Shown here piece after piece: positions 1,438 through 18,605 of a stretch of 64,000 nucleotides of DNA. Source of the DNA: Rikenellaceae bacterium (GTDB taxonomy: Bacteria; Bacteroidota; Bacteroidia; Bacteroidales; Rikenellaceae). The DNA is taken from the NCBI GenBank assembly GCA_031551275.1, contig JAVBNX010000018.1:5501-69500 (forward strand). The letters are read 5' to 3'. Below the pieces are notes generated by a model. It did not search any database and was not told where the DNA came from. It was given only the letters and a program-made list of their open reading frames with translations. The position numbers and the translations under genes were made by a program. The first letter of the stretch is position 1; each line of letters opens with the position of its first letter.

Positions 1438-4400
1438 CTACTCCGCATCCTTCTCGAACTGCTTGCGGTAGGCGGACGGCGATAAATCGAAGTAGTTCTT
1501 GAAGTATTTCCCGAAGTAGTTCAACGAGCTGAAACCCAAATGATAGGTAATGTCGCTGATGTTCATTTCGGGGTGCTCCCTGAGCATGCGGGCGGCCACC
1601 TTGAGCTTGATGTTCTGGATAAATTCGTGGGGGGTCTGGCCCAGGATGCCCTTCATCTTCAAAAAGAGTTTCGTGCGGCTGATGCCCATCTCGGCGCACA
1701 AAAGGCCCACATCCACGCTGCCCGCGCCGATGTTCTGTTCGACGATGCGCACGGCCTTCTCGATGAACTCCTTATCCAGGTTGTTGGTGGTAACGGCTTC
1801 GGCGGGGCTTTGCTCCTCGCGGGAGAATTTCTCCTGCAAGAGGCGCCGGTTGTTCAGCAGGGTCACGCACCGGGCCACCAGAAGCCTGACGTTGAACGGT
1901 TTGGTTATATAGTCGTCCGCCCCGCAGTTCAGTCCCTCGAGGTGGTGTTCCAGCGAACCCAGGGCCGTGAGCAGCACCACGGGGATGTGGCAGGTGTCGA
2001 AATCGGTCTTCAGCCTTACGCAGAGTTCGTTGCCGGGCATCCCGGGCATCATGATGTCGGAGATTACCAGGTCGGGGGAGAGTTCCCGGGCGATGCGCAG
2101 CCCCTCCTCGCCGCCGGTCGCCTCCAGGATGCGGAACATGGGGTCGAAGATGCGCACCAGAAGGTCCCGGAGCTTGGCGTCGTCCTCGACCACCAAAAGG
2201 GTGCTGTCGTTGGCGAACAGGGCGGTGTGCTGTTCGGTAATCTGGTCGATGAACTTGCGGTCCTCGATGTCGGAGAAGGGGATCTCGCCCGCGCCCGGCT
2301 CCTCGTCGGGGGCGATCTCCACGGCGGGGTTGTCCTGTATGACCCGGTCGTCGGCGGGAAGCTCGGCGATGAACAAACTGCCCAACCCCGGACTGCTCTG
2401 CACCCGCAGCGTGCCCCGGTGGGACTCCACGATGTTGCGGGTCAGCGACAGGCCGATGCCCGTGCCGGTCTGGTCGAAGGCGGAGTTGACCTGGTTGTCG
2501 GCCTGGTAGAAACGCTCGAAGATCTTCTCCTGCATCGGGAGGGGGATGCCGATGCCGTTGTCACCGACCGTGATGGTAACGGTTTCGGGCGTGATCTCGA
2601 TGCGGATGGAGATCTTGCCTCCCTCGGGGGTGTATTTGAAGGCATTGGACAGCAGGTTGTTGAGCACCTTGAGCATCTGGGCCGGGTCGAACCAGACCAT
2701 CGCCTGGGGTTGGTCGCTCTCCATCCCAAAGTCGATGCGCTTGAGCTCGGCGAAGCTCGTAAAGGCGAGGTAGGTCTCCCGGACGAAGGCGACCAGGTCG
2801 CCCTTTTTGACCTTGAGGCGGAACATCCCCTGGTCGTACTTCATAAAGTCGAGCAACTCGTTGATCAGGCGGCTCATCTTGATCCCGCCCTTGTGTATCT
2901 CCGAGAGGCTCTTGTGAACGCCCGATGTAATGCCGCTCGAGAGCAGCAGCATCTCGATCTGGCCGATGATAAGGGTCAACGGGGTCTTCAGTTCGTGGGA
3001 TACGTTGGCAAAGAACCTCAGCTTGGCCTGGTTGACCTCCTCGCGCAGGAGTTTGTCCTGGCGTTCCAGCTCCAGCGAGTTGCGCAACAGAAGCCGCGAG
3101 CGGTAGAAGTGGATTACCCAGGCGGCGGCCGAAAGGGTCAGAAGTGCGTAGAGCAAATAGGCCCACCACCGGGCGTACAGGGGGGCGAGCACCTCGATCC
3201 CCAGCGTCGTGACGGCGGCCTGCCTTCCGCCCGCCCCCAAGGCGCGGACATTCAGGGTGTAATCGCCGTAGGGGAGGTTCATGTAACGGATCGCCGCGCC
3301 CTTGCGCAGGGGGATCCACTCGGTGTCGAAGCCCGACAGGCGGTATTCGTACTCGACCTGGCCCAGGTGGGCGAAGTTGTCGTCGCCGACCTCCACGGCG
3401 ATGTTGTTCTCGCTGCTGTTCAGCCTCACGCTCCGGGTCAGGGGCAGGCTGCGGGAGAGGATGGCGCTGTTGTCGCCCGTTTTGATGACGCGGTTGTTGA
3501 CCATCAGCGAACTCAGCCACATCCTGAAATCGAGGTCCCCCGCACTGAGCTGTTTGGGGTCGAGCGTGGCGATGCCGTCCATCCCGCCCATCACGATGCG
3601 CCCGTCGGCCAGTTGGAGGATGCATCCCGGGAGCATGGACTGGAGCGGGAAGCCCCCCGAGGCCTCGTAGTTGCGGCACGCGCCGGTTTGCAGGTCCAGC
3701 CACAGAAGGCCCATGCTGCTGCCCGCCAGTAGGTTGCCTTCGGGATCCTGGCAGATGCTGCCCAGGTAGTCGTTCTTTAGGCTCGAATTGTCGGAGTTGT
3801 AGCAGGTAAACTCGTCCGAGCGGGGATCGTAGAGGATGATTCCGAAGCCCGCCGTGGCGATGGCGATCCGTCCGTCGGAGGTCTCGGCCAGGGCCGTGGC
3901 GGTAATGTCGTCCGCGGAGGTAACCTCAGCCAGCTCCCGCTTGAAGTCCCTCACGTAGTTGGTCTGCGGGTCGTAACAGCACAGGCTGTTGCCCGCGATC
4001 CAGAGCTTGCCCTCCCGGTCGATGATCATCGCGTCGACCGAGAAGATGCTGTTCTCCAGCACGTAGGTCTTTTTGACCTCGTAGTTTTTCAGGTCCATGT
4101 AGTAGACCCCGGCCAGCGTGCCGATGAAAAGGATGCCGTTCTTCTCGACCAGGGCGATCACAGACTCCGAGCGCCAGTTGTTCGAGTCGATCTTGAAGTA
4201 TCGGAAGCGGCCCGTGTGCGTGTCGTAGCGGCATACCCCGCCCAGGTGGGTCCCGATCCACAGGATGCCGTCGTCGTTGAAGTATAGCGACTTGATGTTG
4301 TAGTGCAGCTCGGGACCGGCGTCCATCGGGAAGACCTTCTTTTGGCCCGAGGCAGGGTCCAGCCTGACCAGGCCGCTCCCCTCGGTGGCGAGGTAGAGCT

Positions 4401-5445
4401 CGCCCTGGCCCCCCTCCACGATCTTGCTTACCACCGGGTAGCGCCCCAACCCCAGGTCGGTAAAGCGGAAGATGTTGGCCTTTGGGTTGCAGTAGTCCAC
4501 ACCCCCGTAATAGGTACCCACCCACATCGTCCCCTGCTCGTCCCGCATGATTACCCATACAGAGGAGTGGCTCAATCCGCTTGCGCCGGCCTCTTTGAGG
4601 CCCACGTGGGAGATCCCGCCTTCGGGGGAGAGGATGTCCACGCCGTTCATCGTCCCGATCCAGATGTTGCCTTCGGTGTCCTCGCACACGGCGCGGATGT
4701 AGTTGCCCGAGAGTTCGCCGTGGCGGTAGTTGCGCACCTCTCCCCCGGGGCCGATCCGGTAGAGGCCCTGGCTGAAGGTCCCCACCCACACGCAGCCCCG
4801 GCTGTCGCTCGCAATGGCGATTACCTCGCTGCACGGGGGCAGCACCGGGCGGCTGCGGGACGCTGAGTCGAAGGCCCACAGGCCGTGCGCCTTGGTGCCC
4901 ACGTAGAGCGGACCCCCGGCGGGCTTGTGCAGGGAGGTTATGGTCGCGGCTGGGTTCTCCAGAAGGGCGTAGCGTTCGACCTTCTGCTCCTTATAAGTAA
5001 ATAAGGTATCCATCAGCCCCATCCACAGCGCGTCGTCGGCGTAAGTAAAGGCGATCGAGGGGGCGGAGATGGTGTTGTGCTGGCGGAAGATGGGACGCTT
5101 CCGGTCGGTGGCCAGGTCGTACTCGATGATCACGAAGTCGGTGTTGATAAAGACGTGGCCCCGCTTATCGCCGCAGATGGTGGGGACCAGGCTCGAATTG
5201 ATCCAGTTGTTCACACCCAGGGGCGAGACCGGCTCCACGCTGTTGCCGTTGTAGATCTTTACCCCGTCGCGCGCGCCGATCCACAACCGGCCGAACTCGT
5301 CCTGGAAAAGGCCGTTGATGTTGGTCTGCGCCAGGCCCGACTCGGCCCCCAAATGGCGGAACGATCCTGTCTCCAGCGCGGTGGCGGCTGGCGGCAGGAG
5401 CAGAAAACACAAAAGGGTCAGAAGCGAACAGCGGCTCATGGTCAC
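1438..5445 (-). CDS. hybrid two-component system sensor kinase/response regulator with AraC-type HTH (HTCS)
   Basis: 1335 aa. Domains in order: signal peptide, long periplasmic propeller-like region, TM segment (WWAYLLYALLTLSAAAWVI), HisKA box FFANVSHELKTPLTLI, HATPase motifs DNGIGIP and GTGIGLSL, receiver LLVVEDD...DLVISDIMMPGM, and a C-terminal AraC HTH (ISDITYHLGFSSLNYFGKYFKNYF). Divergent from the SusC/D operon. Confidence 0.9.
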   Translation of the reverse strand: MTMSRCSLLTLLCFLLLPPAATALETGSFRHLGAESGLAQTNINGLFQDEFGRLWIGARDGVKIYNGNSVEPVSPLGVNNWINSSLVPTICGDKRGHVFINTDFVIIEYDLATDRKRPIFRQHNTISAPSIAFTYADDALWMGLMDTLFTYKEQKVERYALLENPAATITSLHKPAGGPLYVGTKAHGLWAFDSASRSRPVLPPCSEVIAIASDSRGCVWVGTFSQGLYRIGPGGEVRNYRHGELSGNYIRAVCEDTEGNIWIGTMNGVDILSPEGGISHVGLKEAGASGLSHSSVWVIMRDEQGTMWVGTYYGGVDYCNPKANIFRFTDLGLGRYPVVSKIVEGGQGELYLATEGSGLVRLDPASGQKKVFPMDAGPELHYNIKSLYFNDDGILWIGTHLGGVCRYDTHTGRFRYFKIDSNNWRSESVIALVEKNGILFIGTLAGVYYMDLKNYEVKKTYVLENSIFSVDAMIIDREGKLWIAGNSLCCYDPQTNYVRDFKRELAEVTSADDITATALAETSDGRIAIATAGFGIILYDPRSDEFTCYNSDNSSLKNDYLGSICQDPEGNLLAGSSMGLLWLDLQTGACRNYEASGGFPLQSMLPGCILQLADGRIVMGGMDGIATLDPKQLSAGDLDFRMWLSSLMVNNRVIKTGDNSAILSRSLPLTRSVRLNSSENNIAVEVGDDNFAHLGQVEYEYRLSGFDTEWIPLRKGAAIRYMNLPYGDYTLNVRALGAGGRQAAVTTLGIEVLAPLYARWWAYLLYALLTLSAAAWVIHFYRSRLLLRNSLELERQDKLLREEVNQAKLRFFANVSHELKTPLTLIIGQIEMLLLSSGITSGVHKSLSEIHKGGIKMSRLINELLDFMKYDQGMFRLKVKKGDLVAFVRETYLAFTSFAELKRIDFGMESDQPQAMVWFDPAQMLKVLNNLLSNAFKYTPEGGKISIRIEITPETVTITVGDNGIGIPLPMQEKIFERFYQADNQVNSAFDQTGTGIGLSLTRNIVESHRGTLRVQSSPGLGSLFIAELPADDRVIQDNPAVEIAPDEEPGAGEIPFSDIEDRKFIDQITEQHTALFANDSTLLVVEDDAKLRDLLVRIFDPMFRILEATGGEEGLRIARELSPDLVISDIMMPGMPGNELCVRLKTDFDTCHIPVVLLTALGSLEHHLEGLNCGADDYITKPFNVRLLVARCVTLLNNRRLLQEKFSREEQSPAEAVTTNNLDKEFIEKAVRIVEQNIGAGSVDVGLLCAEMGISRTKLFLKMKGILGQTPHEFIQNIKLKVAARMLREHPEMNISDITYHLGFSSLNYFGKYFKNYFDLSPSAYRKQFEKDAE

Positions 5446-5570
5446 AAATCCACAACCAAATTACATATTTCGTCCGGGTTTGCAAAACCAAACGGGATAT
5501 TTTCTTTCCCGGATACAAAAGTGTGGAATGTTCGGTACGAATTTATCCAGTCCGGCCCGGGGCAATGGGC

Positions 5571-5578
5571 TAATTTTG
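5571..5578 (+). promoter_or_regulatory. candidate Bacteroidota -7 promoter box (TAnnTTTG) for the PUL operon
   Basis: TAATTTTG matches the TAnnTTTG consensus exactly and lies 9 nt upstream of the GH88-like ATG, in the divergent HTCS/PUL spacer. Confidence 0.3.
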
Positions 5579-5586
5579 ATTTCAGA

Positions 5587-6837
5587 ATGGCCAGGGTGTC
5601 AAATAGCGTTTTCTTGTGCGGGATTTTCGTGATCGCCGCAGTCTTTTTTTGCGGCTGCAAAAACACGGAACCCCCCATGGATAAACTCGTCCAGAAGGCG
5701 CTGGACCGCTCGGTGGTCCAGTGCGAGGGGATGTACAAAAGCCTGGCCGCCACCCCCGGCCAATACCCCTACTCGGTCGACGGGAAGGGGCAATTGCGCA
5801 CCAGCGACCCGTGGTTCTGGTCGGGAGCCTTCTTCCCCGGCACGCTCTGGTACCTTTACGAATACACCGGCCAGCAGCGCATGGGCGAGATGGCCGAAAC
5901 GATGTCCCGGGGCCTCGAAAGCCAGAAGCTCAACCGCAACAGCCACGAAATAGGCTACTCGATCGGGTGCACGTTCTCCAATTCATTGCGCATCCTCGGG
6001 GATGAACACTCCAGGCAGACGGTGCTGACCGCCGCCTCCTCGCTGGCCTCGCAGTTCAACCCCACGGTGGGGTGCATCCGATCGTGGAACCACCCCTTCG
6101 CCTGCCGGTGGGAGTATCCGGTAATCATCGACAACGTCGTGTCGCTCAAATTGCTTCTGGACGCTTGGAAGCTGGACGGCAACCGGGAGTATTACCAAAT
6201 GGCCCTCTCCCACGCCGACAGGACGATCCAGAACCACTTCCGTCCCGATTACAGCTCCTGCCACGTGGTAAGCTACGATACCCTGAGCGGCAAGCCCCTG
6301 CTCAGGGAGACCTACCAGGGCCAGAGCGACAACTCGGCCTGGGCCAGGGGCCAGGCGTGGGGATTGTACGGCTTTACCATGCTTTACGCCGAAACCGGCC
6401 TGGACCGCTACCTGGAGCAGGCGTGCGGGATTGCCGATTTTCTGATCTCCCACCCCCGCCTGCCGCAGGACGGGATACCTTATTGGGACTTCGACGACCC
6501 GCAGATCCCCAACGCCCCCCGCGACGCCTCGGCAGGGGCGATCATGGCCTCGGCGATGGTACAACTGAGTACGCTGGCGCAGGGGCAGAGGGCGGAACGC
6601 TACAAGGCGATGGCCGAGCGGCAGATCCGCACGCTCTGTTCGGACGAGTACATGGCTCCCGCGGGGGAGAATTGCAACTACATCCTGCGCCACGGCGTAG
6701 GCTTCAAGCCTGCGGGCAGCGAGGTCGACGTGCCGCTCTGTTACGCCGATTACTACTTTGTCGAGGCGCTGGTACGCTACCGCACCCTCCACGGGAAGGA
6801 CGATTCGAGAAACAGCCAACTTGCAATCAAAAAATAA
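5587..6837 (+). CDS. GH88-like unsaturated glucuronyl hydrolase, lipoprotein
   Basis: The in-frame ATG at 5587 gives MARVSNSVFLCGIFVIAAVFFCGCK, a lipoprotein signal. The track's upstream extension overlaps the HTCS gene. Motifs DPWFWSGAFFPGTLWYLYEYTG and NSAWARGQAWGLYGF are typical of the GH88 (alpha/alpha)6 fold. Confidence 0.8.
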   Translation: MARVSNSVFLCGIFVIAAVFFCGCKNTEPPMDKLVQKALDRSVVQCEGMYKSLAATPGQYPYSVDGKGQLRTSDPWFWSGAFFPGTLWYLYEYTGQQRMGEMAETMSRGLESQKLNRNSHEIGYSIGCTFSNSLRILGDEHSRQTVLTAASSLASQFNPTVGCIRSWNHPFACRWEYPVIIDNVVSLKLLLDAWKLDGNREYYQMALSHADRTIQNHFRPDYSSCHVVSYDTLSGKPLLRETYQGQSDNSAWARGQAWGLYGFTMLYAETGLDRYLEQACGIADFLISHPRLPQDGIPYWDFDDPQIPNAPRDASAGAIMASAMVQLSTLAQGQRAERYKAMAERQIRTLCSDEYMAPAGENCNYILRHGVGFKPAGSEVDVPLCYADYYFVEALVRYRTLHGKDDSRNSQLAIKK

Positions 6838-6854
6838 TCCAAACTCAACCCTTT

Positions 6855-9800
6855 ATGAAAGACAACGACCTGACTAAAAAAAGGCCATCGAGGTGGATGC
6901 CTCTGGTGATGCTCCTGGGAGCGTTGATGCTCTCCCTGGGTGCAGCCGCCCAGCAGGTAGCTTCCGGCGTGGTGGTCGGAGGAGATCAGAAACCTTTGAT
7001 CGGTGCCACAGTGATCGAGAAAGGGACCACCAACGGGATGACCACCGGCCTGGACGGTAAATTCTCCCTGAAAGTGGCCCCCGGTGCGACCATCCTGGTA
7101 TCCTACATCGGGTATGAAACTCGGGAAATACCGGCGGCCAACGCCGTGAGTGCGACCATCGTCCTGTCGGAAGAATCCACGATGATGGAGAACCTGGTCG
7201 TCGTGGGATACGGCGCCCAGAAAAAAGAGAACCTGACCGGAGCGGTCGCATCGATCAATATCGCCGATATGGTCGACGGGCGTCCGGTAACCAGTGTCTC
7301 CTCCGCGTTGTCGGGGCTCAGCCCCGGCCTTTACGTCCAGCAGGCTACCGGACGGCCCAACGCCGACGGCTCCAACCTGCTGTTGCGCGGCCAGGGAACG
7401 CTCAGCGAGGATGTGAACAGCGCGAGCATGAGCAAGGCCGCCCCGATGATCGTCATCGACGGGATGGTCTCCACGATGAGCGATATGAACGCCCTCAACC
7501 CGATGGATATCGAGCAGATCTCGCTGCTGAAGGATGCGGCTTCCTCGTCGATCTACGGTTCGCGCGCGGCCAACGGCGTGATCCTGGTCAAGACCCGCCA
7601 GGGTGCCGAAAGCCGGTTTACCATCAACTACGCGGGCTATTGGGCCATGGCGCAGCCCTCCAACACGATCGAGACCGTGTCGAACTACGCCGACTACATG
7701 ACCTATTACAACGAGGCGCAACAAAACTCCTCCCCGGGAGCCTCGCCCCAATACAAGGATGCGACCATCCGCGCCTGGCTGGCCAACGACGATCCTTTGC
7801 GCTACCCCAATACCGACTGGCGGGACGAGATCTTCCAGAACGGGGTAATCAACAACCACTCGCTTTCGTTCAGCGGGGGAAGCAAGGAGATCAGGGCCTT
7901 CGGGTCGTTCGGTTACCTGCACAATCCGGGCATCATCGAGAACTCGACCTATGAGCAATACAACGGACGGATCAACGTGAGCGCCGACGTGAGGAAGTGG
8001 CTTACCCTGGGTGTCAACGCGCGCGGTTCGGTGGGCGACGCCGAGATGGGTTCCAAGGCGATGTCCAACCTGTTCGGCGGCATCGGCTCGCCGGGTATCG
8101 TCTACCGCCATCCCGACGGGCGCTACGGCGGCGCGGAAGCGACCGACGAGAGCCAGCAGATCCAGAGCCCGTTGTACGCCTTCAACAGCCGCCAGGGCAA
8201 CATCGTGAGCCGGGCGGTCCAATCGCGCTTCTTCGGAACGATCAGGCCCATGAAAGGCCTGACCGTCGAGGGTGCGTTCAACTACTCCTATACCGATATC
8301 ACGGAGCGCGAAACGCCGCTACTGGCCGAGATATGGAGCTTCCAGCGCAACGTGGTCATCAAAGAGAAGGCCGAGCACGACTATGCGCGCAACCGCCTCA
8401 ACGAGAGCGTACACGTACAGGGCGAGGTAATCGCACGCTACTCGACCACCTTTGCCGCCAAGCGCCTCAGCTTCGACGCCATGGCCGGTGCAAGCCAGGA
8501 GAAGACCAACGCGGGCTGGTTCGAAGCCCAGCGTTACGACCTGATAGACCCCAACCTGACCTCGATCAACGCGGCCACCGGCGAACAGATCGCCTCGGGG
8601 GTTGATCTGGGGGAAGGCTACGCCATGCGCTCCTATTTCGGGCGGGTCAACCTGGCCTGGGAGAACAAATACCTTCTGGAGGCCAACCTGCGGGTGGACC
8701 AGTCGTCGAAATTCGCACCCGACTACCGCACCGGTTGGTTCCCCTCGGTATCGGCAGGGTGGAGGATCGACCAGGAGAAATTCTTCGAGCCCCTCAAAAA
8801 GGTGGTCTCCAGCCTCAAGCTGAGGGCCTCCTACGGTTCGCTGGGTAATGAGAACATCGGCAACTACCAGTACCAGTCCAACTACACCAAAGATCCCTAC
8901 GTGCTCAACTATGCGTTGGCCAACGGGATGACCTATACGCTCTCCAACGCCGCTATCCAATGGGAATCGACCTACCTGGCCAACCTAGGGATCGACGTGG
9001 GCTTGTTCAACAACCGCCTGGAGGGGACCTTCGAGGTCTTCGACAAGATGTCCAAGAACGTTCTGGCCGTCTATCCCGCTCCCCTGCTGGTGGGTACGGC
9101 AAAGATCCCGGCCAGCAACGGGGCGCACATCAACAACCGGGGGCTCGAGTTGAGCCTCAAATGGAGGGACAGGATCGGCAAGGACTTCAACTATTACGTG
9201 AGCGGCAACTTCAGCTACATCCGCAACGAAGTGACCAAATACAAAGGGGACGAAAGGACCGTTTCCGGGGCCAACCTGGTCCAGGAGGGCCACCCGATCA
9301 ACGTGCAGTATGTCTACCGCGTCAGCAAGATCGTCAAAGACAGCGAGGATGTGGCCTATGTGCAGCAGATGATCGACAACGCCCCGTACGGCGGGGACGG
9401 TAAGAAACTCGACCCGTTCGCCGCGGTGGGAGGACGCCCCGGTTTGGGAGATTTCCTTTATACCGACATCAACGGCGACGGGGTTATCAACGACGACGAC
9501 AAGGTGCTGGTCGGATTCGGGCAGGTTCCCCCCATTACCTACGGTGCGCAGCTCGGGTGTTCCTGGAAAGGGATCGACTTCTCGGTCATGCTTCAGGGCA
9601 TCAAGGGGTATAAATGGCTCTGGCAGGACAACTTCAACATGGGCTACCTGAACTACGGCGGACCCATCAACAAGGAGTGGGCGGAAAACGCCTGGAGGCC
9701 ATCCAACCCCGAGGCCACCATGCCCAGGCTCAACATCCGCGGAACTGAGCAGAACAACGTGGAGAGCGACTACTGGGTGGCCGACAAATCGTACATGAGG

Positions 9801-9995: not shown

Positions 9996-10007
9996 CGAGT
10001 CGCGACG

Positions 10008-11750: not shown

Positions 11751-11757
11751 TACTTTT

Positions 11758-12963
11758 ATGCGAAATTACATTCTTTTAGCCTTCCTGCCCCTGGCAATTT
11801 TCTCCTGCAAGCAGGCCCCTCAACAGGCTTACTCAGACAGCATGGATCCGGCAGCCATACGCCGGGTGGTCAACGATGCGATCGTATGGCAGACGCAGAA
11901 CATGCCCCAGGCGGGCCGCCACGAGTGGAATCCCCAATACACCGGCTGGGCCGACGGGGTCTTCCTGAGCGCGGTCTCCGACTGGGCCGAATACGATAAC
12001 GAGCGGAGCCTCAGGGAGTGGTACCAGGGGGTCGCCGAAAAGGTGCGTTGGGAACCTGCCTGGCGCACGATCAACCCCGCCAACGACGTGGCCGTGAGCC
12101 TGGCTTACGCGAAGATCTGGCAGAACGCCGAGATCAAGGAGCGCTTCCCTCTCTCCGAGATCGGGGAGTGGAACACCGACAAGGTACGCGAGTTGTTCGG
12201 CGGCTGGGGGCCTCTGATCCCCACCATCGAGAGGCTGGACTACCAGATGAAGTACTGCCCGCAGACCGACGACAGCCTTCGTTTCGAGAACCCGCTCAAC
12301 CACGAGCGCTGGTGCTGGTGCGACGCGCTGTACATGGCCGCGCCGACCTACGTGGCGTTCGCCAACATTACAGGCAACCAAGCGTACCTCGACTTCATGG
12401 AGAAGGAGTTCTGGCTTACCTTCGATGTGCTCTACTCCCCCCAGGACAGCCTGATCTACCGCGACACCCGCTTTATCGGGCAAAAGGAGAAAAACGGTGC
12501 CAAAGTCTTCTGGGGCCGGGGCAACGGCTGGGTGTTGGGCGCGCTGGCGCGTGTGATCGATCTGCTGCCGGCGGACTATCCCACCCGGGACCGCTACGTG
12601 GAGATGTACCAGCAGATGATGGCCCGGGTCGCCTCCCTGCAGGATGAGAACGGCTACTGGCATACCAGCATGCTCGATACGGAGAACTACACCTCCCCAG
12701 AGACCAGCGCGACGGGCTTCTTTACCTACGCGCTCTGGTGGGGGATCAACCGGGGGCTGATGGGCGAGGAGTATGTGCCGAAGGCCGAAAAAGCGTGGAA
12801 AGCGATGGTCGCGGCGGTCCATCCCGGCGGCAAACTGGGCTATGTGCAGCCCATCGGCGACGCGCCCGAGAACATATCCTTTGAAAAAAACGAGGTGTAC
12901 GGCACGGCCGCCTTCGCCCTGGCGGGGCTTGAGGCTGCCCGGTACGCCGAAACGATCGATTGA
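11758..12963 (+). CDS. GH105-like unsaturated rhamnogalacturonyl/glucuronyl hydrolase, lipoprotein
   Basis: 401 aa. Lipobox LAIFSC. YteR/YesR-type motifs WCWCDALYMAAP and FWGRGNGWVLGALARV. Confidence 0.8.
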   Translation: MRNYILLAFLPLAIFSCKQAPQQAYSDSMDPAAIRRVVNDAIVWQTQNMPQAGRHEWNPQYTGWADGVFLSAVSDWAEYDNERSLREWYQGVAEKVRWEPAWRTINPANDVAVSLAYAKIWQNAEIKERFPLSEIGEWNTDKVRELFGGWGPLIPTIERLDYQMKYCPQTDDSLRFENPLNHERWCWCDALYMAAPTYVAFANITGNQAYLDFMEKEFWLTFDVLYSPQDSLIYRDTRFIGQKEKNGAKVFWGRGNGWVLGALARVIDLLPADYPTRDRYVEMYQQMMARVASLQDENGYWHTSMLDTENYTSPETSATGFFTYALWWGINRGLMGEEYVPKAEKAWKAMVAAVHPGGKLGYVQPIGDAPENISFEKNEVYGTAAFALAGLEAARYAETID

Positions 12964-12965
12964 CC

Positions 12966-14132
12966 ATGACATCCAGAGAGAGAATTCAATTAGCCGTCGA
13001 CCACAAAGAGGCCGATAGGGTACCCTATGACCTGGCCGGGACGACCGTGACCGGGATCTGCGTCGGGGCATTCAAAAACGCCATGCGCGAGAGGGGACTC
13101 TCCACCGAATTCCAGAAGGAGGTGGATCCCATTTCGCAGATCGTAACCCCCGTCGAGGAGACGCTCGAGGTGTTGAAATCCGACACGCGCCGCATCGGTG
13201 CGCGCCGGGTAATCGACTACGAGGATATCCGCACCAAGCAGGGGACGGAGTGGTCGCTGGTCGACCATTGGGACTGCCTGTGGAAACTGGACGAGACCAA
13301 GGACCTCTACTACAACCAGTTTACACACCCGTTGGAGAGCTACGACTCGATTACCGAGGGGTTGCAGAAATGGCACGTGCCAGACTGGAGCAAATACGTG
13401 CCCCAGATGGAGAAGGACATCGCCGAGCAGGCTCCCTTCCTGGACGGATACGCCGGGATCGCCGACAGGAATTGCGCGGGGCTGACCGAGATGTCGCTCC
13501 GCATCCGGGGCTACACCAAGTGGTACATGGACCTGTTCCTCGATCCCGAGGGGGTGGACGCGCTTCTGGAACAGATTACCCAACACAAGCTCGACTACTG
13601 GAAGTCGCTGTTCGACTGGATGGATAAAAACGGGGTAACCCAGAAGATCGACGTGGTCAGCGAGTGCGACGATCTGGGAACCCAGTCCTCGACGCTGATC
13701 GACCCCGACCAGTTGCGCGAGCTGGTCATCCCGCGTTTCAAGCGGATCTGGGCTTATACCAAGCAGCGCGCTCCCCACGCCAAAAACTTCATGCACACCT
13801 GCGGGGCGGTCAGGCCCCTGCTGCCCGATCTGATCGAGGCGGGGCTGGATATCTACAACCCGGTGCAGTTTACCGCCAAGGACATGGACCTGGCGGGATT
13901 GAAGCGCGACTTCGGGAAAGACCTGGTCTTCTGGGGCGGGGGGATCGACACCCAGTCGACCCTGTGCAAGGGTACCCCCCAGCAGGTCTCGGACGAGATC
14001 AAGCGCATACTCGACATCATGGCCCCGGGCGGAGGCTTCGTCTTCGCCCCGGTGCACAACATTCAGGACGACGTTTCGGCCGCCAACTTCTGGGCCATGT
14101 GGGACACGTTGCAGGAGTACGGAAAATATTAG
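12966..14132 (+). CDS. uroporphyrinogen decarboxylase (URO-D)/MtaA-like family protein, cytoplasmic
   Basis: The first ATG is at 12966 (the track starts at TTG 12960). No signal peptide. N-terminus MTSRERIQLAVDHKEADRVPYDL and C-terminus PGGGFVFAPVHNIQ are typical of the URO-D TIM-barrel family. An H-x-C motif (FMHTCGAV) resembles the Zn site of MtaA-type methyltransferases. Confidence 0.7.
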   Translation: MTSRERIQLAVDHKEADRVPYDLAGTTVTGICVGAFKNAMRERGLSTEFQKEVDPISQIVTPVEETLEVLKSDTRRIGARRVIDYEDIRTKQGTEWSLVDHWDCLWKLDETKDLYYNQFTHPLESYDSITEGLQKWHVPDWSKYVPQMEKDIAEQAPFLDGYAGIADRNCAGLTEMSLRIRGYTKWYMDLFLDPEGVDALLEQITQHKLDYWKSLFDWMDKNGVTQKIDVVSECDDLGTQSSTLIDPDQLRELVIPRFKRIWAYTKQRAPHAKNFMHTCGAVRPLLPDLIEAGLDIYNPVQFTAKDMDLAGLKRDFGKDLVFWGGGIDTQSTLCKGTPQQVSDEIKRILDIMAPGGGFVFAPVHNIQDDVSAANFWAMWDTLQEYGKY

Positions 14133-14138
14133 GATACC

Positions 14139-15395
14139 ATGAAAAACTACCGCTGGACGATCTGCGCCCTGTTGTTCTTCGCCACCACGATCAACTACCT
14201 CGACAGGGCGGTGATCGGCCTGTTGAAAGAGACCTTGACCGGGGAGTTCAACTGGAGCGAGAGCGACTACGGCAACATCATCATCTGTTTCCAGGTCGCC
14301 TACGCCGTTTCGCTGCTGGGCGTGGGCTGGATCATCGACAAGGTGGGGACCAAACTGGGTTACACCCTTTCGATGATCGTCTGGAGCGTGGCCGCCGTCT
14401 TCCACGCCTTCGCGCGCGGGACTGTGGGCTTCGGCGCGGCAAGGGCCATGCTGGGCGCGGGCGAGGCGGGTAACTTCCCCGCCGCCAACAAGACCGTGGC
14501 CGAGTGGTTCCCCTTGAAGGAGCGCGCCCTGGCCACCGGGATCTACAACTCGGGATCGACCATCGGGGCCATCGTCGCGCCGATCGCCGTGCCGTTCATC
14601 GCCATCCAGTGGGGATGGAAATGGGCCTTTATCGCCACGGGTCTGATCGGGTTTATCTGGCTGGTCTTCTGGTTGCTTTGCTACCGCGCGCCGGACAAGG
14701 CGCAGGTGGAAGCCATGCAGGCCGAGCAACCCGAACCGGAGGAGTCCACCGCCAAGGTAAGCTGGTTCAGGCTGTTGGGTTACAAGCAGACCTGGGCTTT
14801 CGTGGTGGGGAAATTCTTCTCCGACCCCGTCTGGTGGTTCTTTTTGTTCTGGCTTCCCGCCTTCCTTAAATCGGAGTACGGGCTGACCGGGATGCAGGTC
14901 TCGCTGCCCTTGATCGTGGTCTACGCCATCTCCTCGGTGGGGAGCGTGTTCGGCGGCTGGCTGCCCAAACGGATGATCGAGGCGGGCAGAAGCGAGTCGG
15001 GCTCACGCAAGACCTCGATGCTGGTCTACGCGTTGATCCCGCTCCTGGTGCTGGTGGCCCAATGGGCGGGACGGTTCAATATGTGGTACGCGATCATTAT
15101 CATCGCGCTGGCTTGCGCGGCGCACTGCGCGTGGATGGCCAATTTGTTCGCCACGGTCTCTGATATGTTCCCCAAGAAGGCCGTCGCCTCGGTAACGGGC
15201 ATCGGCGGGATGGCCGGATCGGTGGGCGGGATCCTGATCGCCTGGGCCGCCGGTCTGCTCTTCGACCACTACAAGGCGATGGGCGATATCCGCGTGGGCT
15301 ACGGGATCATGTTCATGGTCTGCGCAGTGGCCTACCTGATCGCCTGGCTGATCATGCATTTCCTGGTCCCGAAATACAAGCGCCTCGATATATGA
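14139..15395 (+). CDS. MFS transporter, hexuronate (ExuT)-like
   Basis: 418 aa with about 12 predicted hydrophobic segments. N-terminus WTICALLFFATTINYLDRAVIGLLK is characteristic of the ACS/ExuT subfamily. Confidence 0.85.
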   Translation: MKNYRWTICALLFFATTINYLDRAVIGLLKETLTGEFNWSESDYGNIIICFQVAYAVSLLGVGWIIDKVGTKLGYTLSMIVWSVAAVFHAFARGTVGFGAARAMLGAGEAGNFPAANKTVAEWFPLKERALATGIYNSGSTIGAIVAPIAVPFIAIQWGWKWAFIATGLIGFIWLVFWLLCYRAPDKAQVEAMQAEQPEPEESTAKVSWFRLLGYKQTWAFVVGKFFSDPVWWFFLFWLPAFLKSEYGLTGMQVSLPLIVVYAISSVGSVFGGWLPKRMIEAGRSESGSRKTSMLVYALIPLLVLVAQWAGRFNMWYAIIIIALACAAHCAWMANLFATVSDMFPKKAVASVTGIGGMAGSVGGILIAWAAGLLFDHYKAMGDIRVGYGIMFMVCAVAYLIAWLIMHFLVPKYKRLDI

Positions 15396-16657
15396 AAAAG
15401 CTGATCTTTGCGGCGGTCGGTTTGTTGGCGGCCGCCTGCTGCCGGGTTGCTGAACCGAAGCCCGAACCGGGCGCGTTTTGCGTGAACATCCCCGCGGAGC
15501 ATCCCCGGATGGTTTTGAACAAGGCTGAGTTGGAAGCCCTTAAAGCGCATGTCGCCTCGGCGGAACAGCCCTGGAAAGGCGCGTGGGAAAACCTGCAGGC
15601 CACGGTCGAAAAGTACGCTTCCGACGAGTGGCAGCCCGATGTGTACATGGGCGACAACACGATGGATTACTACAAAGCCCTGATGCGGGACGGGGACGCG
15701 GCACGCGATCTGGCGATCGCCTACTGGGTCTCCGGCGAGGAGAGGTACGCCCGAAAAGGGGCGGCGATCCTCGCGGCCTGGCTGCCCAAAGAGGGTGCGC
15801 TGCCCGGCACGGCCTTCGATATGGAGGTCAACTACCCCAACCTGGGGATGCTGACCGGGCGGAGTATTTTTCCGTACCTCTACGCCTACGATCTGTTGAA
15901 AGGGGCGGGTAAGATCCCCGCCGGGGCGGATGCCAGGCTCGAGGAGTGGCTGCGCAGCCGCGTGGAGTACGTCAAGCAAGGCTCCCTGCGTTGGCGCGAC
16001 AGCAACTACTTTGACCGCCAATGGTACCAGAACCACCTGGTGGCCGACGCGATGGGCCTGATGGCGATCGCCGTGACCCTGAGGGACAGCGCGCTGATGC
16101 AGTATGCGGTCGACTCGCCCATCAACGAAAGGGACGTTAAGGAGTTGGTCTCCGGAATAATCCTGATGGAGGGCCAGCCAAAATACTACCGCGAGCCGGG
16201 CGACTGGCCCACCCAAACGGGCGAGATCGCCGACCGCTACCGCCATTTCGCCATAGGCGGACATTACAAAGATTATGTAACTTTGCCCGACCGGGGACTG
16301 CAATACTGCGGGCTTTCGTCGAGCCTGCTGCTCTCCATCGCCGAGATGGGACGGCACAACGGGATCGACGTCTACCAATACGTCGCGCCCGAGGGGGAGA
16401 ACCTCAAGCTGCCGATGCTGTTCTATTCGGAGTTCTACATCACGCACGATTCGTCGGTCAACGGCGGGTTCTATGCCGGGGAGGACGACTGGATCAACGC
16501 TGGGGACGCCGACACGTGGGAGATGTGGGAGGTGGCCAATAAACGGTGGCCCGGCGAGGAAAAATTCCGCGAAGTGTTGCGCGTCAACCGGGGGAATTAC
16601 CTTTCGATGCACCAACTGGGGCCGGTTTCGCTGACCCATGCGGAAAAAATAGATTAA
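15392..16657 (+). CDS. polysaccharide lyase-like (alpha/alpha)-toroid lipoprotein (alginate_lyase/PL5-PL38-like), paralog 1
   Basis: 421 aa. ATGA start/stop overlap with the MFS gene. Lipobox LAAAC. Motif WYQNHLVADAMG contains an Asn-His pair like the catalytic NH of PL5-type lyases, and GEIADRYRHFAIGGHY gives an Arg/Tyr segment. CAZy family not assigned. Confidence 0.55.
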   Translation: MKKLIFAAVGLLAAACCRVAEPKPEPGAFCVNIPAEHPRMVLNKAELEALKAHVASAEQPWKGAWENLQATVEKYASDEWQPDVYMGDNTMDYYKALMRDGDAARDLAIAYWVSGEERYARKGAAILAAWLPKEGALPGTAFDMEVNYPNLGMLTGRSIFPYLYAYDLLKGAGKIPAGADARLEEWLRSRVEYVKQGSLRWRDSNYFDRQWYQNHLVADAMGLMAIAVTLRDSALMQYAVDSPINERDVKELVSGIILMEGQPKYYREPGDWPTQTGEIADRYRHFAIGGHYKDYVTLPDRGLQYCGLSSSLLLSIAEMGRHNGIDVYQYVAPEGENLKLPMLFYSEFYITHDSSVNGGFYAGEDDWINAGDADTWEMWEVANKRWPGEEKFREVLRVNRGNYLSMHQLGPVSLTHAEKID

Positions 16658-16658
16658 A

Positions 16659-18599
16659 ATGAAAAAAATCCTTTTGCTGTTGTGCCTTTTGGCCGGGATG
16701 AAGGCCTTCGGGGCCTTTCCGGAGCGTCCACGGTTGGTCCTTTCGGCCTCGGACCTGGTGGAGTTGAGAGAGCATGTGGAGTCGGAGAAGCAGCCCTGGA
16801 AATGGGCCTGGGAGAACCTGCAAAAGGATGCCGAGCGGTATATGGCGGAGAAATTCCAGCCCATGCCCTACTTCGGGCCCGACAGCAAAAAGTGCTACGA
16901 CGTTTTGATGCGGGACGCCTACGCGGCCCGCGACCTGGCCATCGCCTATTACGCCTCGGGCGAGAAGCGCTACGCCGAAAAGGCCGCCATGATCCTGGCC
17001 GCGTGGCTGCCCAGGGAGGGCCCCCTGCCCGGGACGGCGTTCGATCCCGAGTTGAACTACTCGAGCCTGGGGATGCTTGCCGCCCGCTCGATCTTCCCCT
17101 ACCTCTACGCCTACGACCTGTTGAAAGGGGGCGGCATGATCCCCGAGGGGGCCGATGCGAGGCTGGAGGAGTGGTTGAGAAGCCGTGCGGAGCAAATCCG
17201 CGAGGGAGCCCGCCGGTGGAAGGATAACGACTACTTCGATAAGCAGTATTACCAGAACCACATCGTCGCCGACGCGATGGGCCTGATGGCGATCGGGATC
17301 ACTTTGGGCGACGAACAGATGGTCCGGTACGCGGTCGACTCGCCCGGGAACGAGCGCGATCTGAAAGATTTGATCGCCGGGATCATCCTGATGGAGGGCG
17401 AGAAACCCTACTACCGCGAGCCGGGCGACTGGCCCGTGCAGACGGGCGAGATCGCCGACCGCTACCGCCACTTCGAGATCGGGGGGCACTACAAGGACTA
17501 TGTGACCAAGCCCAACCGGGGGCTGCAGTACTGCGGGCTCTCGACCACGCTGTTGATGATCGCCGCCGAGATGGGGCGTTTGAACGGGATCGACCTGTGG
17601 GGCTATGTCGCCCCGGGGGGCGAAACGCTGCGCCTGCCGTTGGAGTTCTACTCGGGATTCTATTACCTGAAAAGCGATACGATCCAGGGCGGGTTCTACA
17701 CCGGGGAGAAACCCTGGATCAACGGCAACGAGTCGTGCACCTGGACGATGTGGGAGGTGGGCAACAAGCGCCTGCCCGGCGAAAAGAAATTCGAGGCGGT
17801 CCTGGAGGCCAACCGGGGCGGGAAGTATATGCCCCTGCATTTGCTGGGCCCCGTGGCGTTGACCCACGCCGTGGCCCTGACTCCGGAGCAGGAGATGGCT
17901 GCCCTCAAATTGCTTCCCTGGAAGACAACCTTTGAGGACGGTATGAGAGGCGATTGGCAGGAGAAATGGCATCTGGATGGCGAGGTCGGGACGGTAAAAA
18001 CCTCGCCCAAAGGGCTGGAAATGAAGGCCGGGCCCCAGGAGAAGAACAACGCCGACCACATGGTTTTGTGGGCCAAACCGGAGTTCAAGGGCCCCGTCAG
18101 GATCGAATACGACTTTACCCGGTTGGATAAATCGAAGGCCGGGACGGTCAATATCATCTACCTGATGGCCACCGGAAGCGGCCAGGGCCCCTACAAGGAG
18201 GATATTTTCGAATGGAACGACCTGCGCAAAGTCCCCGCGATGGCTACCTATTTCGACCACATGAACGCCTACCACATCAGCTACGCGACCGTGGACCCGG
18301 AGGGCAGCTACGTACGTGCGCGCAGATATATGCCCCTGCTGAACAAGGGATTGAACGGCACGGCTTTAACGCCCGAGTACATCCATGCCGATATGTTCAA
18401 GCCCGGCGTGAAGTACCACATCACAGTCATCCAACACGGCGACAGGCTCTTTCTGGAGGCGACCGGCAAGGGGAAGACCGAGCTCTTCTGGTTCGATACC
18501 TCGACCCTGCCGCCTTTGGACCGCGGGCGCGTAGGCCTGCGGTTGATGTGGACGCGCAACTCGCTCTTCTCGGATTTCTCGGTCGGAACGCTGGAATAA
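16659..18599 (+). CDS. polysaccharide lyase-like toroid protein, paralog 2, with C-terminal YesU/DUF1961-like (ConA-like) domain
   Basis: 646 aa with an SPI-type signal (MKAFGAF). The first ~410 aa are about 70-75 percent identical, by eye alignment, to the upstream gene (YYQNHIVADAMG, GEIADRYRHFEIGGHY). The extra ~230-aa C-terminal domain (nt ~17901-18599) resembles DUF1961 by recall. Confidence 0.55.
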   Translation: MKKILLLLCLLAGMKAFGAFPERPRLVLSASDLVELREHVESEKQPWKWAWENLQKDAERYMAEKFQPMPYFGPDSKKCYDVLMRDAYAARDLAIAYYASGEKRYAEKAAMILAAWLPREGPLPGTAFDPELNYSSLGMLAARSIFPYLYAYDLLKGGGMIPEGADARLEEWLRSRAEQIREGARRWKDNDYFDKQYYQNHIVADAMGLMAIGITLGDEQMVRYAVDSPGNERDLKDLIAGIILMEGEKPYYREPGDWPVQTGEIADRYRHFEIGGHYKDYVTKPNRGLQYCGLSTTLLMIAAEMGRLNGIDLWGYVAPGGETLRLPLEFYSGFYYLKSDTIQGGFYTGEKPWINGNESCTWTMWEVGNKRLPGEKKFEAVLEANRGGKYMPLHLLGPVALTHAVALTPEQEMAALKLLPWKTTFEDGMRGDWQEKWHLDGEVGTVKTSPKGLEMKAGPQEKNNADHMVLWAKPEFKGPVRIEYDFTRLDKSKAGTVNIIYLMATGSGQGPYKEDIFEWNDLRKVPAMATYFDHMNAYHISYATVDPEGSYVRARRYMPLLNKGLNGTALTPEYIHADMFKPGVKYHITVIQHGDRLFLEATGKGKTELFWFDTSTLPPLDRGRVGLRLMWTRNSLFSDFSVGTLE

Positions 18600-18605
18600 A
18601 ATAAA

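Follow-up and report, generated by a model that had tools for sequence, protein, structure and literature searches.

A compact locus of a Rikenellaceae bacterium pairs GH88 and GH105 with an unnamed group of lyases and may target a rhamnose- and glucuronate-containing glycan

Which glycan is degraded by a PUL that combines two types of unsaturated-uronyl hydrolases with lyases lacking any pectin, alginate or GAG signature? The question is raised by a compact locus in the window, the whole 64,000-nucleotide stretch of Rikenellaceae DNA that was analysed here. An earlier note, made from the sequence alone, considered the substrate not deducible. This was too pessimistic, since the comparative context narrows it to a glycan containing rhamnose and a 4-linked uronate.

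Layout of the locus

The plus-strand operon (5587-18599) encodes, in this order, GH88, SusC, SusD, GH105, an MtaA-like URO-D-fold protein, an MFS transporter of the ACS type and two tandem lyase paralogs, termed lyase A and lyase B. All genes were found where the earlier note had placed them, and its description of a tightly packed operon with gaps of 1 to 17 nt and a 4-nt MFS/lyase overlap agrees with the distances measured from GH88 to lyase B (17, 12, 7, 2, 6, -4 and 1 nt), the overlap being an ATGA at the MFS/lyase A junction. The divergent upstream gene (1438-5445, minus strand) likewise proved to encode an HTCS sensor/regulator, with the Pfam domains Reg_prop (7e-36), Y_Y_Y, HisKA, HATPase_c, Response_reg and HTH_18, and a signal-like hydrophobic stretch at its N-terminus. 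It is separated from GH88 by a 141-nt spacer. A search with the pattern TANNTTTG gave a single plus-strand match upstream of the operon, TAATTTTG (5571-5578), 9 nt 5' of the GH88 start, which is a candidate Bacteroidetes -7 promoter box by consensus match only. At its other end the operon is closed by a 13-bp GC-rich hairpin (18604-18632), found in a terminator scan between lyase B and a convergent SAM methyltransferase gene, which is probably a bidirectional terminator.

The SusC-like TonB-dependent transporter (6855-9995, plus strand; Pfam CarbopepD_reg_2 and Plug) starts with an ATG at 6855 followed by a signal peptide. Its partner is a SusD-like surface glycan-binding lipoprotein (10008-11750, plus strand; Pfam SusD_RagB, 3e-38, and SusD-like_3) with a lipobox. 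GH88, GH105, SusD and lyase A are predicted lipoproteins, and the cellular locations given for the other operon proteins are likewise predictions. As the earlier note had stated for sulfatase, KdgF and isomerase/reductase genes, the Pfam domain content of the operon includes no sulfatase, KduI, KduD or KdgF. KduI, UxaC, RhaA, RhaB and RhaM are encoded elsewhere in the genome.

Lyases, uronyl hydrolases and their relatives

Lyase A (15392-16657, plus strand), a clade I lipoprotein, and lyase B (16659-18599, plus strand) both match PF05426 Alginate_lyase (1.5e-17 and 2.3e-19, respectively). Due to this match the lyases, which the earlier note had called unassigned, are assigned at the level of the fold, yet they remain unassigned at the level of the CAZy family. 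Lyase B is 65% identical to lyase A, its sister in the tree with a support of 100. Judged by sequence, it is the tandem duplicate of lyase A, extended at the C-terminus by a DUF1961/YesU-like domain (residues 436-641). A type-I signal peptide marks it as secreted, with the periplasm as its predicted location. A third paralog, lyase C (28496-30319, plus strand), which like the mid-operon URO-D gene goes unmentioned in the earlier note, is separated from the main operon by a pilus operon and has its own -7 box at 28468-28475. This clade II protein combines BACON and Alginate_lyase Pfam domains with a lipobox and, in the tree, falls among the BACON-type lyases found together with clade I lyases in other PULs. 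It is probably the surface endo-lyase of the system.

Foldseek searches with the AF2 model of lyase A (pLDDT 91.9) retrieved BoPL38 and PL5 as best matches (TM 0.6-0.72, 13-16% identity), along with PL17 and GAG lyases. With the family profile, 3nfv is matched at 6e-11 and 8bdq at 5e-8, whereas the single-sequence E-value is 0.013. Invariant in the alignment of the lyase group are Q210, N214, H215, R282, R284 and Y305 (lyase A numbering), of which the Asn-His pair N214-H215 and Y305 correspond to the catalytic residues N242/H243 and Y298 of BoPL38 (10.1101/2024.12.11.627697), Y305 being aligned with Y298. PL38 (Bacteroides ovatus BoPL38, 8bdq/9fi*) and PL5 (Sphingomonas A1-III, 1qaz) share with this group the (alpha/alpha)-toroid fold, the catalytic Tyr and the Asn-His pair. 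However, besides the low identity, BoPL38 H297 is replaced by Gln, a DRYRH motif is specific to the group studied here, and its members sit with GH88/GH105, RhaM and DUF1961 rather than with alginate genes. By sequence profile and model, the lyases make up an unnamed, rare branch within the (alpha/alpha)-toroid 'Alginate_lyase' fold which is not of the canonical pectin, alginate or GAG type. The absence of canonical lyases noticed earlier stands, and all homologs are annotated only as 'hypothetical protein' or 'alginate lyase family protein'. Literature searches retrieved no characterised equivalent of the lyases or of the PUL, in line with the earlier remark that the locus matches no canonical one.

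The GH88/GH105 pairing proposed in the earlier note is backed by PDB matches for both proteins. GH88 (5587-6837, plus strand; lipobox FFCGC) matches 3wiw, the Pedobacter heparinus enzyme Phep_2830, best (2.3e-101) and the Bacillus UGL 1vd5 at 7e-47. Its D182 aligns with the catalytic D149 of the Bacillus enzyme, and E121 occupies the position of D88. The GH88 enzymes characterised so far are known to attack unsaturated glucuronyl ends in beta linkage. GH105 (11758-12963, plus strand; Pfam Glyco_hydro_88 model, 5e-76) matches 4ce7, an ulvan enzyme, at 2.7e-60 and 5noa, which we take to be the AGP GH105 BT3687, at 6.3e-53. The matches to 3k11, presumably the GH105 of the RG-I PUL, and to YteR are weaker (9e-20 and 5e-11). 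By these scores GH105 appears closest to the beta-glucuronyl (ulvan/AGP) type, much closer than to 3k11 or YteR. There is precedent for the pairing in ulvan degradation, where GH88 or GH105 act after lyases (PMC8511951).

For comparison, a clustered set of 36 related loci was surveyed. Across this set the lyases, two to six per locus, are accompanied by GH88 or GH105, L-rhamnose mutarotase (RhaM; in part of the loci), acetylesterases and DUF1961/YesU; marine loci carry sulfatases in addition. The lectin YesU recognises a 6-deoxyhexose (PMC6120924). RhaM is found within 10 of the 36 loci, with an eleventh case outside that clustering, and one locus (L042) contains a rhamnulokinase-like FGGY kinase. 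A natural GH105-lyase fusion (P0032) links the lyase to an unsaturated-uronyl hydrolase. True GH88 also occurs in Bacteroides and Pseudopedobacter loci, and is the sole unsaturated-uronyl hydrolase in the Bacteroides-type ones. The closest syntenic PUL (L037/L177) encodes SusC/D, DUF1961, GH105, a lyase, RhaM, two BACON-lyases, URO-D, MFS and AKR; its URO-D and MFS are 68% and 65% identical to those of the operon.

The URO-D-fold protein and candidate methyl transfer

The mid-operon gene (12966-14132, plus strand; ATG at 12966) encodes an MtaA-like, predicted cytoplasmic URO-D-fold protein (Pfam URO-D, 7e-20), which is a candidate substrate:corrinoid methyltransferase. Its profile matches MtaA (4ay7) at 7e-10, compared to 2e-4 for true UROD; H277-x-C279 aligns with the zinc ligands of MtaA and H364 with the third ligand, and MtaA is also the best fold match of the AF2 model (pLDDT 94.8). 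The NCBIfam MtaA/CmuA score, however, is far below the cut-off (49.7 vs 235). The adjacent MFS (14139-15395, plus strand) belongs to the anion:cation symporter (ExuT/DgoT) group (TIGR00893, 2.5e-66) and shares 62% identity with the MFS of the L159 corrinoid operon and 42% with a paralog beside UxaC.

Alistipes orthologs (81-83% identical) are found in the gene order AKR, URO-D, MFS, corrinoid protein, Met_synt_B12 and second URO-D, and the same parts recur in L159, in L168 and beside L003. Six loci from at least three lineages have URO-D, MFS, corrinoid protein, activator and second URO-D in one operon. The genome studied here encodes one corrinoid protein with a DxHxxG motif, a MetH-type activator and an MT2 ortholog. 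A predicted complex of URO-D and the corrinoid protein scores 0.78, the best control 0.00; the mark applied is attained by 58 of 80 solved complexes and by 2 of 110 mismatched pairs. Between runs at least 77% of contacts agree, with a partner pLDDT of at least 81, although the score may partly reflect resemblance to solved methyltransferase/corrinoid complexes. The neighbours of the URO-D/MFS pair in the Alistipes relatives, where a corrinoid protein, a second URO-D and a MetH-type activator belong to the same operon, suggest that URO-D may remove the methyl group of an imported methylated uronate in a B12-dependent manner. Neither the MFS nor the AKR in relatives indicates which compound is methylated, and the same holds for the PL8/PL9 and GH105 loci to which URO-D orthologs are linked.

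Members of the UroD superfamily are listed in PMC10418091. The parallel to MtaABC of methanogens and the Odm/Vdm O-demethylases of acetogens lies in the candidate methyltransferase of URO-D fold, which has an H-x-C metal motif, and in the single operon that in relatives joins it to a corrinoid protein with DxHxxG motif and to another protein of URO-D fold. Unlike in these systems, the activator is a MetH-type domain instead of a RACE/RamA ATPase, the genes are embedded in glycan loci beside sugar-acid transporters and the scores lie far below family cut-offs. In marine porphyran PULs, too, an enzyme has been proposed to take off a methyl group that prevents the sugar from being catabolised, namely a cytochrome P450 6-O-methyl-galactose demethylase (PMC6292453). 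That enzyme is oxygen-dependent and of unrelated fold, whereas the route considered here would be anaerobic and B12-dependent.

The putative target glycan and its alternatives

We propose that this gut-type Bacteroidales host uses the locus as an HTCS-controlled PUL for an acidic plant or algal glycan whose key bond most likely joins L-rhamnose to glucuronate at O-4, be it in the backbone of an ulvan-like rhamnoglucuronan or in AGP/gum-type Rha-GlcA caps. To this reading as a whole, including the methyl step, we give an even chance. Gene content and order, folds, conserved catalytic residues and comparative context are observed, whereas the glycan, the cellular locations, each enzymatic step and the methyl transfer are inferred from them. 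The substrate is narrowed by what related loci carry: GH88/GH105, RhaM, acetylesterases, DUF1961/YesU and, in marine relatives, sulfatases. Since RhaM, rhamnosidase, esterase and sulfatase are all missing from the operon, we infer rhamnose from the relatives only, that is from RhaM, the L042 kinase and the recurrent DUF1961/YesU. Glucuronate is most likely preferred over galacturonate, in view of the true GH88, the ulvan/AGP-like GH105, the ulvan precedent and the marine sulfatases. The polymer would be cut at the cell surface by BACON-tagged lyase C and the fragments taken up by SusD/SusC. In the periplasm lyases A and B, the latter with its YesU-like lectin domain, would complete beta-elimination, and GH88 and GH105 would trim the 4,5-unsaturated uronate off at the non-reducing ends. 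The ExuT-type MFS would import the anionic product, and the MtaA-like URO-D would pass the methyl group of a methylated uronate-type product to the single corrinoid protein of the genome. The demethylated product might then enter the KduI or UxaC routes. The logic of the earlier note, from lyase via unsaturated oligosaccharide and GH88/GH105 to ExuT-like import, is consistent with the domains found and with where the proteins are predicted to be located.

AGP PULs of Bacteroides use the Rha-alpha-1,4-GlcA lyase PL27, which has the fungal counterpart PL42, together with GH105 BT3687. As would be the case here, L-rhamnose is freed from O-4 of GlcA by a lyase and the unsaturated glucuronate is removed by GH105; moreover, 5noa is the second-best structure match of our GH105, and some related loci have GH43 and GH2 as neighbours. 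AGP PULs differ in their lyase fold, while the operon studied here is devoid of a galactan-degrading enzyme and its relatives have two to six paralogous lyases in each locus, some of them BACON-tagged surface forms. The ulvan loci of Formosa agariphila, with PL28/PL40 lyases, GH88/GH105, GH78 and sulfatases (PMC8511951), share the order of lyase, 4,5-unsaturated uronate on rhamnose, and GH88 or GH105, with both hydrolase families in use. The best structural relative of our GH105 is the ulvan enzyme 4ce7, and rhamnose genes recur in relatives. However, PL24, PL25, PL28 and PL40 were not recognised among the Pfam or PDB matches, our lyases are of a different fold family, sulfatase, GH78, GH3 and dehydratase are absent, the host is gut-type, and URO-D plus MFS are added.

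The main rival target, rhamnogalacturonan-I with its alternating GalA and Rha, seems unlikely to us. The lyases would then act on RG, the unsaturated residue set free by GH105/GH88 would be GalA, and pectin would be the source of the methyl group handled by URO-D, e.g., a methyl-esterified or methyl-etherified uronate. YesU is part of the Bacillus subtilis RG-I operon, and the logic of lyase, GH105, acetylesterase and YesU/DUF1961 with rhamnose as a product is common to the lyase loci, the yes operon and the RG-I PUL of Bacteroides thetaiotaomicron; RhaM accompanies the lyases of related loci as well. RG-I is also what two closely related Rikenellaceae loci (L034 and L035) point to, in which the lyases adjoin a PL26 PcRGLX-like RG exolyase, a GDSL esterase, GH43 and GH2. 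URO-D orthologs near a Pel9A-like beta-helix protein and GH105, and an otherwise pectinolytic genome (six GH28, one CE8), agree with this. Yet the PL26 neighbourhood is confined to just these two loci, true GH88 is present here and stands alone in Bacteroides-type loci, and GH105 is much nearer to the ulvan/AGP type. Compared with the yes operon and the B. thetaiotaomicron PUL, the new lyase group takes the place of PL4, PL9, PL11 and PL26, GH88 is present, and GH28 and GH106 are absent from the operon. Even less probable is a rhamnose-free polyuronide or GAG-like polymer, such as alginate, beta-1,4-glucuronan, heparosan, hyaluronan or a chondroitin-type bacterial capsule. In its favour are the Pfam family name, the nearest lyase structures (PL38, PL5 and PL17 of the alginate/glucuronan families, plus GAG lyases) and an operon without further glycosidase, which would suit a pure uronate or disaccharide-repeat polymer; Phep_2830, the best GH88 match, reportedly prefers heparin-type disaccharides. 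This is countered by the low identity to PL38 and PL5, by the recurrence of RhaM in related loci and by an operon that lacks PL6, PL7, PL17, KdgF, DEH reductase, sulfatase and amino-sugar genes; to our knowledge, alginate pathways make no use of GH88 or GH105.

A different doubt, to which we assign somewhat more weight than to either of these polymers while still favouring demethylation, concerns URO-D itself. It might act in some other way on the acid sugar that is imported, or supply a split methionine synthase, in which case its corrinoid neighbourhood would reflect methionine or C1 metabolism only; some 'lyase' paralogs might also be oligosaccharide dehydratases instead of lyases. A cofactor-free dehydratase that makes the same unsaturated end does exist in ulvan PULs (PMC8511951). 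Since a separate Hcy-binding/pterin module (C25:317311-318687) is present and no full-length MetH was seen in the genome, the corrinoid protein and the activator could be a split MetH, and corrinoid genes adjoin the URO-D ortholog in just 6 of 24 loci. For demethylation, on the other hand, speak the six operons that unite all five components, the conserved MtaA zinc motif and the predicted complex that passes its controls. The 3.3-Mb genome moreover has 11 PF01208 matches, several of them in PULs, one beside a sugar transporter (C7) and one directly 5' of RhaM.

Gene organization of the operon and its two hydrolases

The region holds a PUL with two undescribed parts, an unclassified group of toroid lyases and an embedded module made up of an MtaA-like protein and an MFS transporter. 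The earlier note had read the locus as a PUL of the lyase/unsaturated-uronyl-hydrolase type, and our analysis supports this reading and finds the locus to be real. ORF listing, Pfam, NCBIfam and inspection of the N-termini confirm its gene map. Eight plus-strand genes encode, in this order, a GH88 lipoprotein (5587-6837), SusC (6855-9995), SusD (10008-11750), a GH105 lipoprotein (11758-12963), a URO-D-fold protein of 388 aa (12966-14132), the MFS transporter (14139-15395) and the tandem paralogs lyase A (15392-16657) and lyase B (16659-18599). A hybrid two-component regulator (HTCS; 1438-5445, minus strand) is divergent from the operon. The SusC/SusD pair (6855-11750) that defines a PUL is found together with GH88, GH105, lyases and a divergent HTCS. 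The intergenic gaps of 17, 12, 7, 2, 6, -4 and 1 nt bear out the tight packing that had been described. A Bacteroidetes-type -7 box, TAATTTTG, lies upstream of the first gene (5571-5578), a 13-bp hairpin follows the last one (18604-18632), and the G+C content is even throughout the region. Gene calls were kept only if backed by Pfam or BLAST; in this genome of 60% GC the longest ORFs are sometimes antisense, as over SusC and KduI. Pfam searches also agree that sulfatase, KduI, KduD and KdgF are all absent from the operon, and the same is true for CE8.

Both hydrolase assignments hold, and both proteins carry lipoprotein signals. The GH88 protein matches 3wiw of Pedobacter heparinus over residues 24-402 (2.3e-101) and the Bacillus UGL 1vd5 (7e-47). 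Of the two active-site Asp residues of the Bacillus enzyme, D149 has its counterpart in D182, and E121 stands in place of D88, a position at which 3wiw retains the Asp. The GH105 protein matches the Nonlabens ulvan enzyme 4ce7 (2.7e-60), Bacteroides 5noa (6.3e-53), 3k11 (9e-20) and YteR (5e-11). Judged from these matches, the beta-glucuronyl types are much nearer to it than YteR or 3k11, which we take to be an enzyme from an RG-I PUL.

A class I SAM-dependent methyltransferase gene (18635-19408, minus strand) is convergent with the end of the PUL, and the terminator hairpin is common to both. It is followed by a gene for a 718-aa lipoprotein (19590-21746, minus strand), which we excluded as a missing glycosidase, as it is on the opposite strand and beyond the terminator. 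This lipoprotein has no Pfam match; its neighbours in the protein atlas are clusters labelled GH95-N-terminal-like, 'putative polygalacturonase' and DUF5703. Contig C25 of the source genome encodes a paralog with 40% identity (65167-67254), about 4 kb from the only KduI gene of the genome.

An unclassified group of toroid lyases

The earlier note had recognised none of the canonical pectin (PL1/9/10/11), alginate (PL6/7/17) or GAG (PL8/12/13) lyases. This was borne out, as the three lyases of the window, lyases A and B and a third paralog termed lyase C, match PF05426 only in Pfam. The ulvan-typical families PL24/25/28/40 were likewise not found by Pfam among the operon proteins and lyase C. 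As a single sequence, lyase A reaches 8bdq in the PDB at an E-value of 0.013, and lyase B is without a match. A profile built from 30 family members detects 3nfv (6e-11), BoPL38 (5e-8) and the PL5 enzyme A1-III (1.5e-6). For lyase A, AF2 predicts an (alpha/alpha) toroid (pLDDT 91.9), whose best fold matches are BoPL38, 3nfv, PL5, PL17 and GAG lyases, with TM values of 0.5-0.72 and 13-16% identity; for the comparison with PL38 and PL5, the TM values are 0.58-0.72. Residues invariant in the lyase group include Q210, N214, H215, R282, R284 and Y305. Of these, N214-H215 corresponds to the N242/H243 pair, whose catalytic role has been demonstrated in BoPL38 (10.1101/2024.12.11.627697), and Y305 aligns with BoPL38 Y298. 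Because the toroid fold and these residues are kept, yet sequence similarity is remote, beta-elimination by the predicted lyases is plausible, whereas their sequences do not support membership in PL38 or PL5. The lyases form an undescribed, unclassified toroid group, for which none of the sources searched has a name.

The group is rare. A word-limited search among 5.8 billion proteins returned 63 clusters, all annotated as 'hypothetical' or as 'alginate lyase family protein', and no member was found in 40 genomes from the same genus, family and order. Scanning genome contigs with lyase B alone gave zero relatives; an alignment-based query was needed and recovered 34 loci. The hosts are Paludibacter, Rikenellaceae/Alistipes, several Bacteroides, Pseudopedobacter, Cryptobacteroides, many Verrucomicrobiota, Planctomycetota, one Clostridia MAG and Microlunatus, and one protein of the group from gut Bacteroides is present on up to 235 contigs. 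Lyases of the group are nearly always multi-copy, and the Bacteroidota loci pair them with GH88 or GH105.

In a quick maximum-likelihood tree the Bacteroidota members split into two clades. Clade I consists of proteins of about 415 aa and includes lyases A and B as a pair of tandem duplicates (support 100), and clade II consists of BACON-tagged proteins and includes lyase C. The latter (28496-30319) is a lipoprotein with a BACON domain, and its gene has a -7 box of its own; between this gene and the operon lie the SAM methyltransferase, the 718-aa lipoprotein and a pilus operon. As most PULs have one lyase of each clade, we regard lyase C as the surface enzyme of the system, displaced from the operon.

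The group extends beyond the FCB and PVC phyla, with deep-branching members in the Clostridia MAG (locus L062), which encodes three large lyase paralogs of 792-1016 aa, and in Microlunatus parietis (L065). The loci L004 and L043 of Planctomycetes bacterium GWF2_41_51 represent the same system in non-PUL form: their lyase paralogs are interspersed with two URO-D proteins, SSF transporters, GH2, a BcGHD (PF10022) protein, a PEP-CTERM-tagged protein and several Laminin_G_3 proteins.

Narrowing the substrate through related loci

The substrate had been called not deducible. Related loci narrow it down, but it can still not be named. We counted companion genes over 36 clustered related loci, which contain 2-6 lyases each. 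L-rhamnose mutarotase (RhaM) is found in 10/36 (an 11th case was seen outside the clustering), SASA-type acetylesterase in 8, GH88 in 6-7, GH105 in about 7, SSF transporters in 7, sulfatases in 6, every one of them marine or from Verrucomicrobiota, and 2-hydroxyacid dehydrogenase in 5 loci. Moreover, one protein (P0032) is a natural fusion of GH105 with a lyase. DUF1961/YesU is recurrent, either free or fused, and a domain of this kind forms the C-terminus of lyase B. YesU is a lectin that prefers glycans carrying fucose, a 6-deoxyhexose (PMC6120924), and lyase B therefore probably has a binding module at its C-terminus. A compact type of locus, conserved in Bacteroides and Pseudopedobacter, consists of HTCS, GH88, lyase, SusC, SusD, RhaM, BACON-lyase, lyase, DUF1961 and esterase. 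It lacks any further glycosidase, which fits a polymer whose breakdown to rhamnose and 5-dehydro-4-deoxy-glucuronate would require lyases together with an unsaturated-uronyl hydrolase. In another related Bacteroidota PUL (L003), a nitroreductase-family gene (7639-8268) is in an unusual position between SusC and SusD.

Alginate was rejected as the substrate, its sole support being the Pfam name. Rhamnose on O-4 of glucuronate, as part of either an ulvan-like backbone or AGP-type caps, would be the favoured linkage, because the GH88 is a true one, the GH105 is of the ulvan/AGP type and in ulvan loci GH88 or GH105 acts after the lyases (PMC8511951). RG-I is a serious rival: PL26, a GDSL esterase, GH43 and GH2 adjoin the lyase PUL in two Rikenellaceae loci, and the source genome is pectinolytic elsewhere. 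A search for PL26, PL8 and PL9-like orthologs elsewhere in the source genome found none; RhaA, RhaB, RhaM, KduI and UxaC are all encoded there outside the operon. Literature searches on new PL families and on DUF1961 did not find a characterised equivalent. Assignment of the substrate of the lyases would establish a new lyase family and account for a PUL type that recurs in gut and aquatic bacteria.

The embedded MtaA-like protein and its putative corrinoid partner

The 388-aa URO-D-fold protein has no signal peptide. Its profile is closer to MtaA (4ay7, 7e-10) than to true uroporphyrinogen decarboxylases (2e-4), and MtaA is also the closest fold to its AF2 model (pLDDT 94.8); against the MtaA/CmuA family TIGR01463 it scores 49.7 bits, far under the cut-off of 235.4. 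In the alignment with MtaA, H277-x-C279 coincides with the zinc ligands H-I-C, and H364 occupies the position of the third ligand, where MtaA has a Cys. Orthologs with 57-83% identity are widespread in Bacteroidia, the nearest being in Alistipes. Among 24 ortholog loci, 18 have an MFS gene and 10 an aldo-keto reductase (AKR) gene next to the ortholog, 5 have GH105 at a distance of up to 8 kb, and 1 has PL8 together with a Pel9A-like protein. In 6/24 loci, namely those of four Alistipes MAGs, L159 and L168, a single operon encodes the ortholog, a corrinoid protein, a Met_synt_B12 activator and a second URO-D protein of 332 aa. The MFS transporter of the window and its L159 counterpart share 62% identity, and the corrinoid/activator/URO-D set is also found beside the lyase PUL of L003. 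The URO-D/MFS pair is a further case of MtaA-like enzymes in glycan loci, with corrinoid-protein operons in relatives.

The source genome (3.29 Mb, 29 contigs, 96% complete; RpoB shares 80% identity with that of a sheep-colon Alistipes MAG and 78% with that of a Rikenellaceae MAG) has all parts of such a corrinoid-dependent system, dispersed over other contigs. The DxHxxG corrinoid protein and the activator are encoded at C17:5306-6848 and the ortholog of the second methyltransferase at C16:43088-44080; orthologs of the AKR or GFO/IDH/MocA proteins of the relatives' module were not found in the genome. The C17 corrinoid protein is the only stand-alone one of the genome, and its gene is followed by one for a MetH-type activation-domain protein. 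A predicted complex of the URO-D protein with this corrinoid protein scored 0.78, a mark reached by 58/80 solved complexes and 2/110 mismatched pairs, and the best control scored 0.00. At least 77% of the contacts agree between runs, and the pLDDT of the partner is at least 81; the prediction was run from custom alignments, and part of the score may come from resemblance to solved complexes. Taken together, these data support the URO-D protein as a candidate substrate:corrinoid methyltransferase, which would act on a compound imported by the ExuT-type MFS transporter. This compound would most likely be a methylated uronate, and the methyl group could be transferred in either direction. The corrinoid protein and its activator may, however, belong to a split methionine synthase, since an Hcy-binding/pterin module, the pterin part of which is partial, is encoded separately at C25:317311-318687 and a full-length MetH was not seen in the genome.

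Coming back to methyl transfer by the URO-D protein, the two parts of the PUL can be combined in a tentative reading, which we consider rather doubtful: a new lyase family cleaving rhamnose-(1,4)-glucuronate-type bonds would work together with a B12-dependent, oxygen-free demethylase of methylated uronates, which would be one of approximately eight PUL- or sugar-linked MtaA-like paralogs of the genome, all using the single corrinoid protein. If this were true, the demethylase would be the anaerobic counterpart of the P450 sugar demethylases. Oxygen-free demethylation of sugars or uronates would then fill a gap in anaerobic methylated-sugar catabolism and link glycan foraging in the gut to vitamin B12 and to C1 or methionine metabolism. 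MtaA-like clusters have been described without mention of Bacteroidota or sugars (PMC10418091). Literature searches on corrinoid/cobalamin sugar demethylation in PULs and on URO-D in PULs found no characterised equivalent, and reports on the anaerobic catabolism of methylated sugars such as 4-O-methyl-glucuronate were not found either.

The source genome has 11 PF01208 (URO-D) matches, some of which are in other PULs or, on C7, beside a sugar transporter. Paralogs of the operon's URO-D gene are at C7:94794-96053, C16:93857-95110, C16:37763-39070, C20:180274-181476, C10:74520-75653, C25:401145-402272, C20:210001-210750 and C9:3653-4387. The C7 paralog is the first gene of a PUL that also encodes a Sugar_tr MFS, GH35 and GH5, and a C16 paralog is the last gene of a PUL with GH31, DUF4959/DUF4998 and DUF4185. 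Finally, at C16:36949-39390 (L030:6949-9390) an AraC-type regulator gene is divergent from a two-gene unit, in which a URO-D paralog is immediately upstream of L-rhamnose mutarotase, and in the Planctomycetes locus L004 RhaM also adjoins a URO-D gene. This adjacency hints that such a paralog might be specific for methyl-rhamnose.
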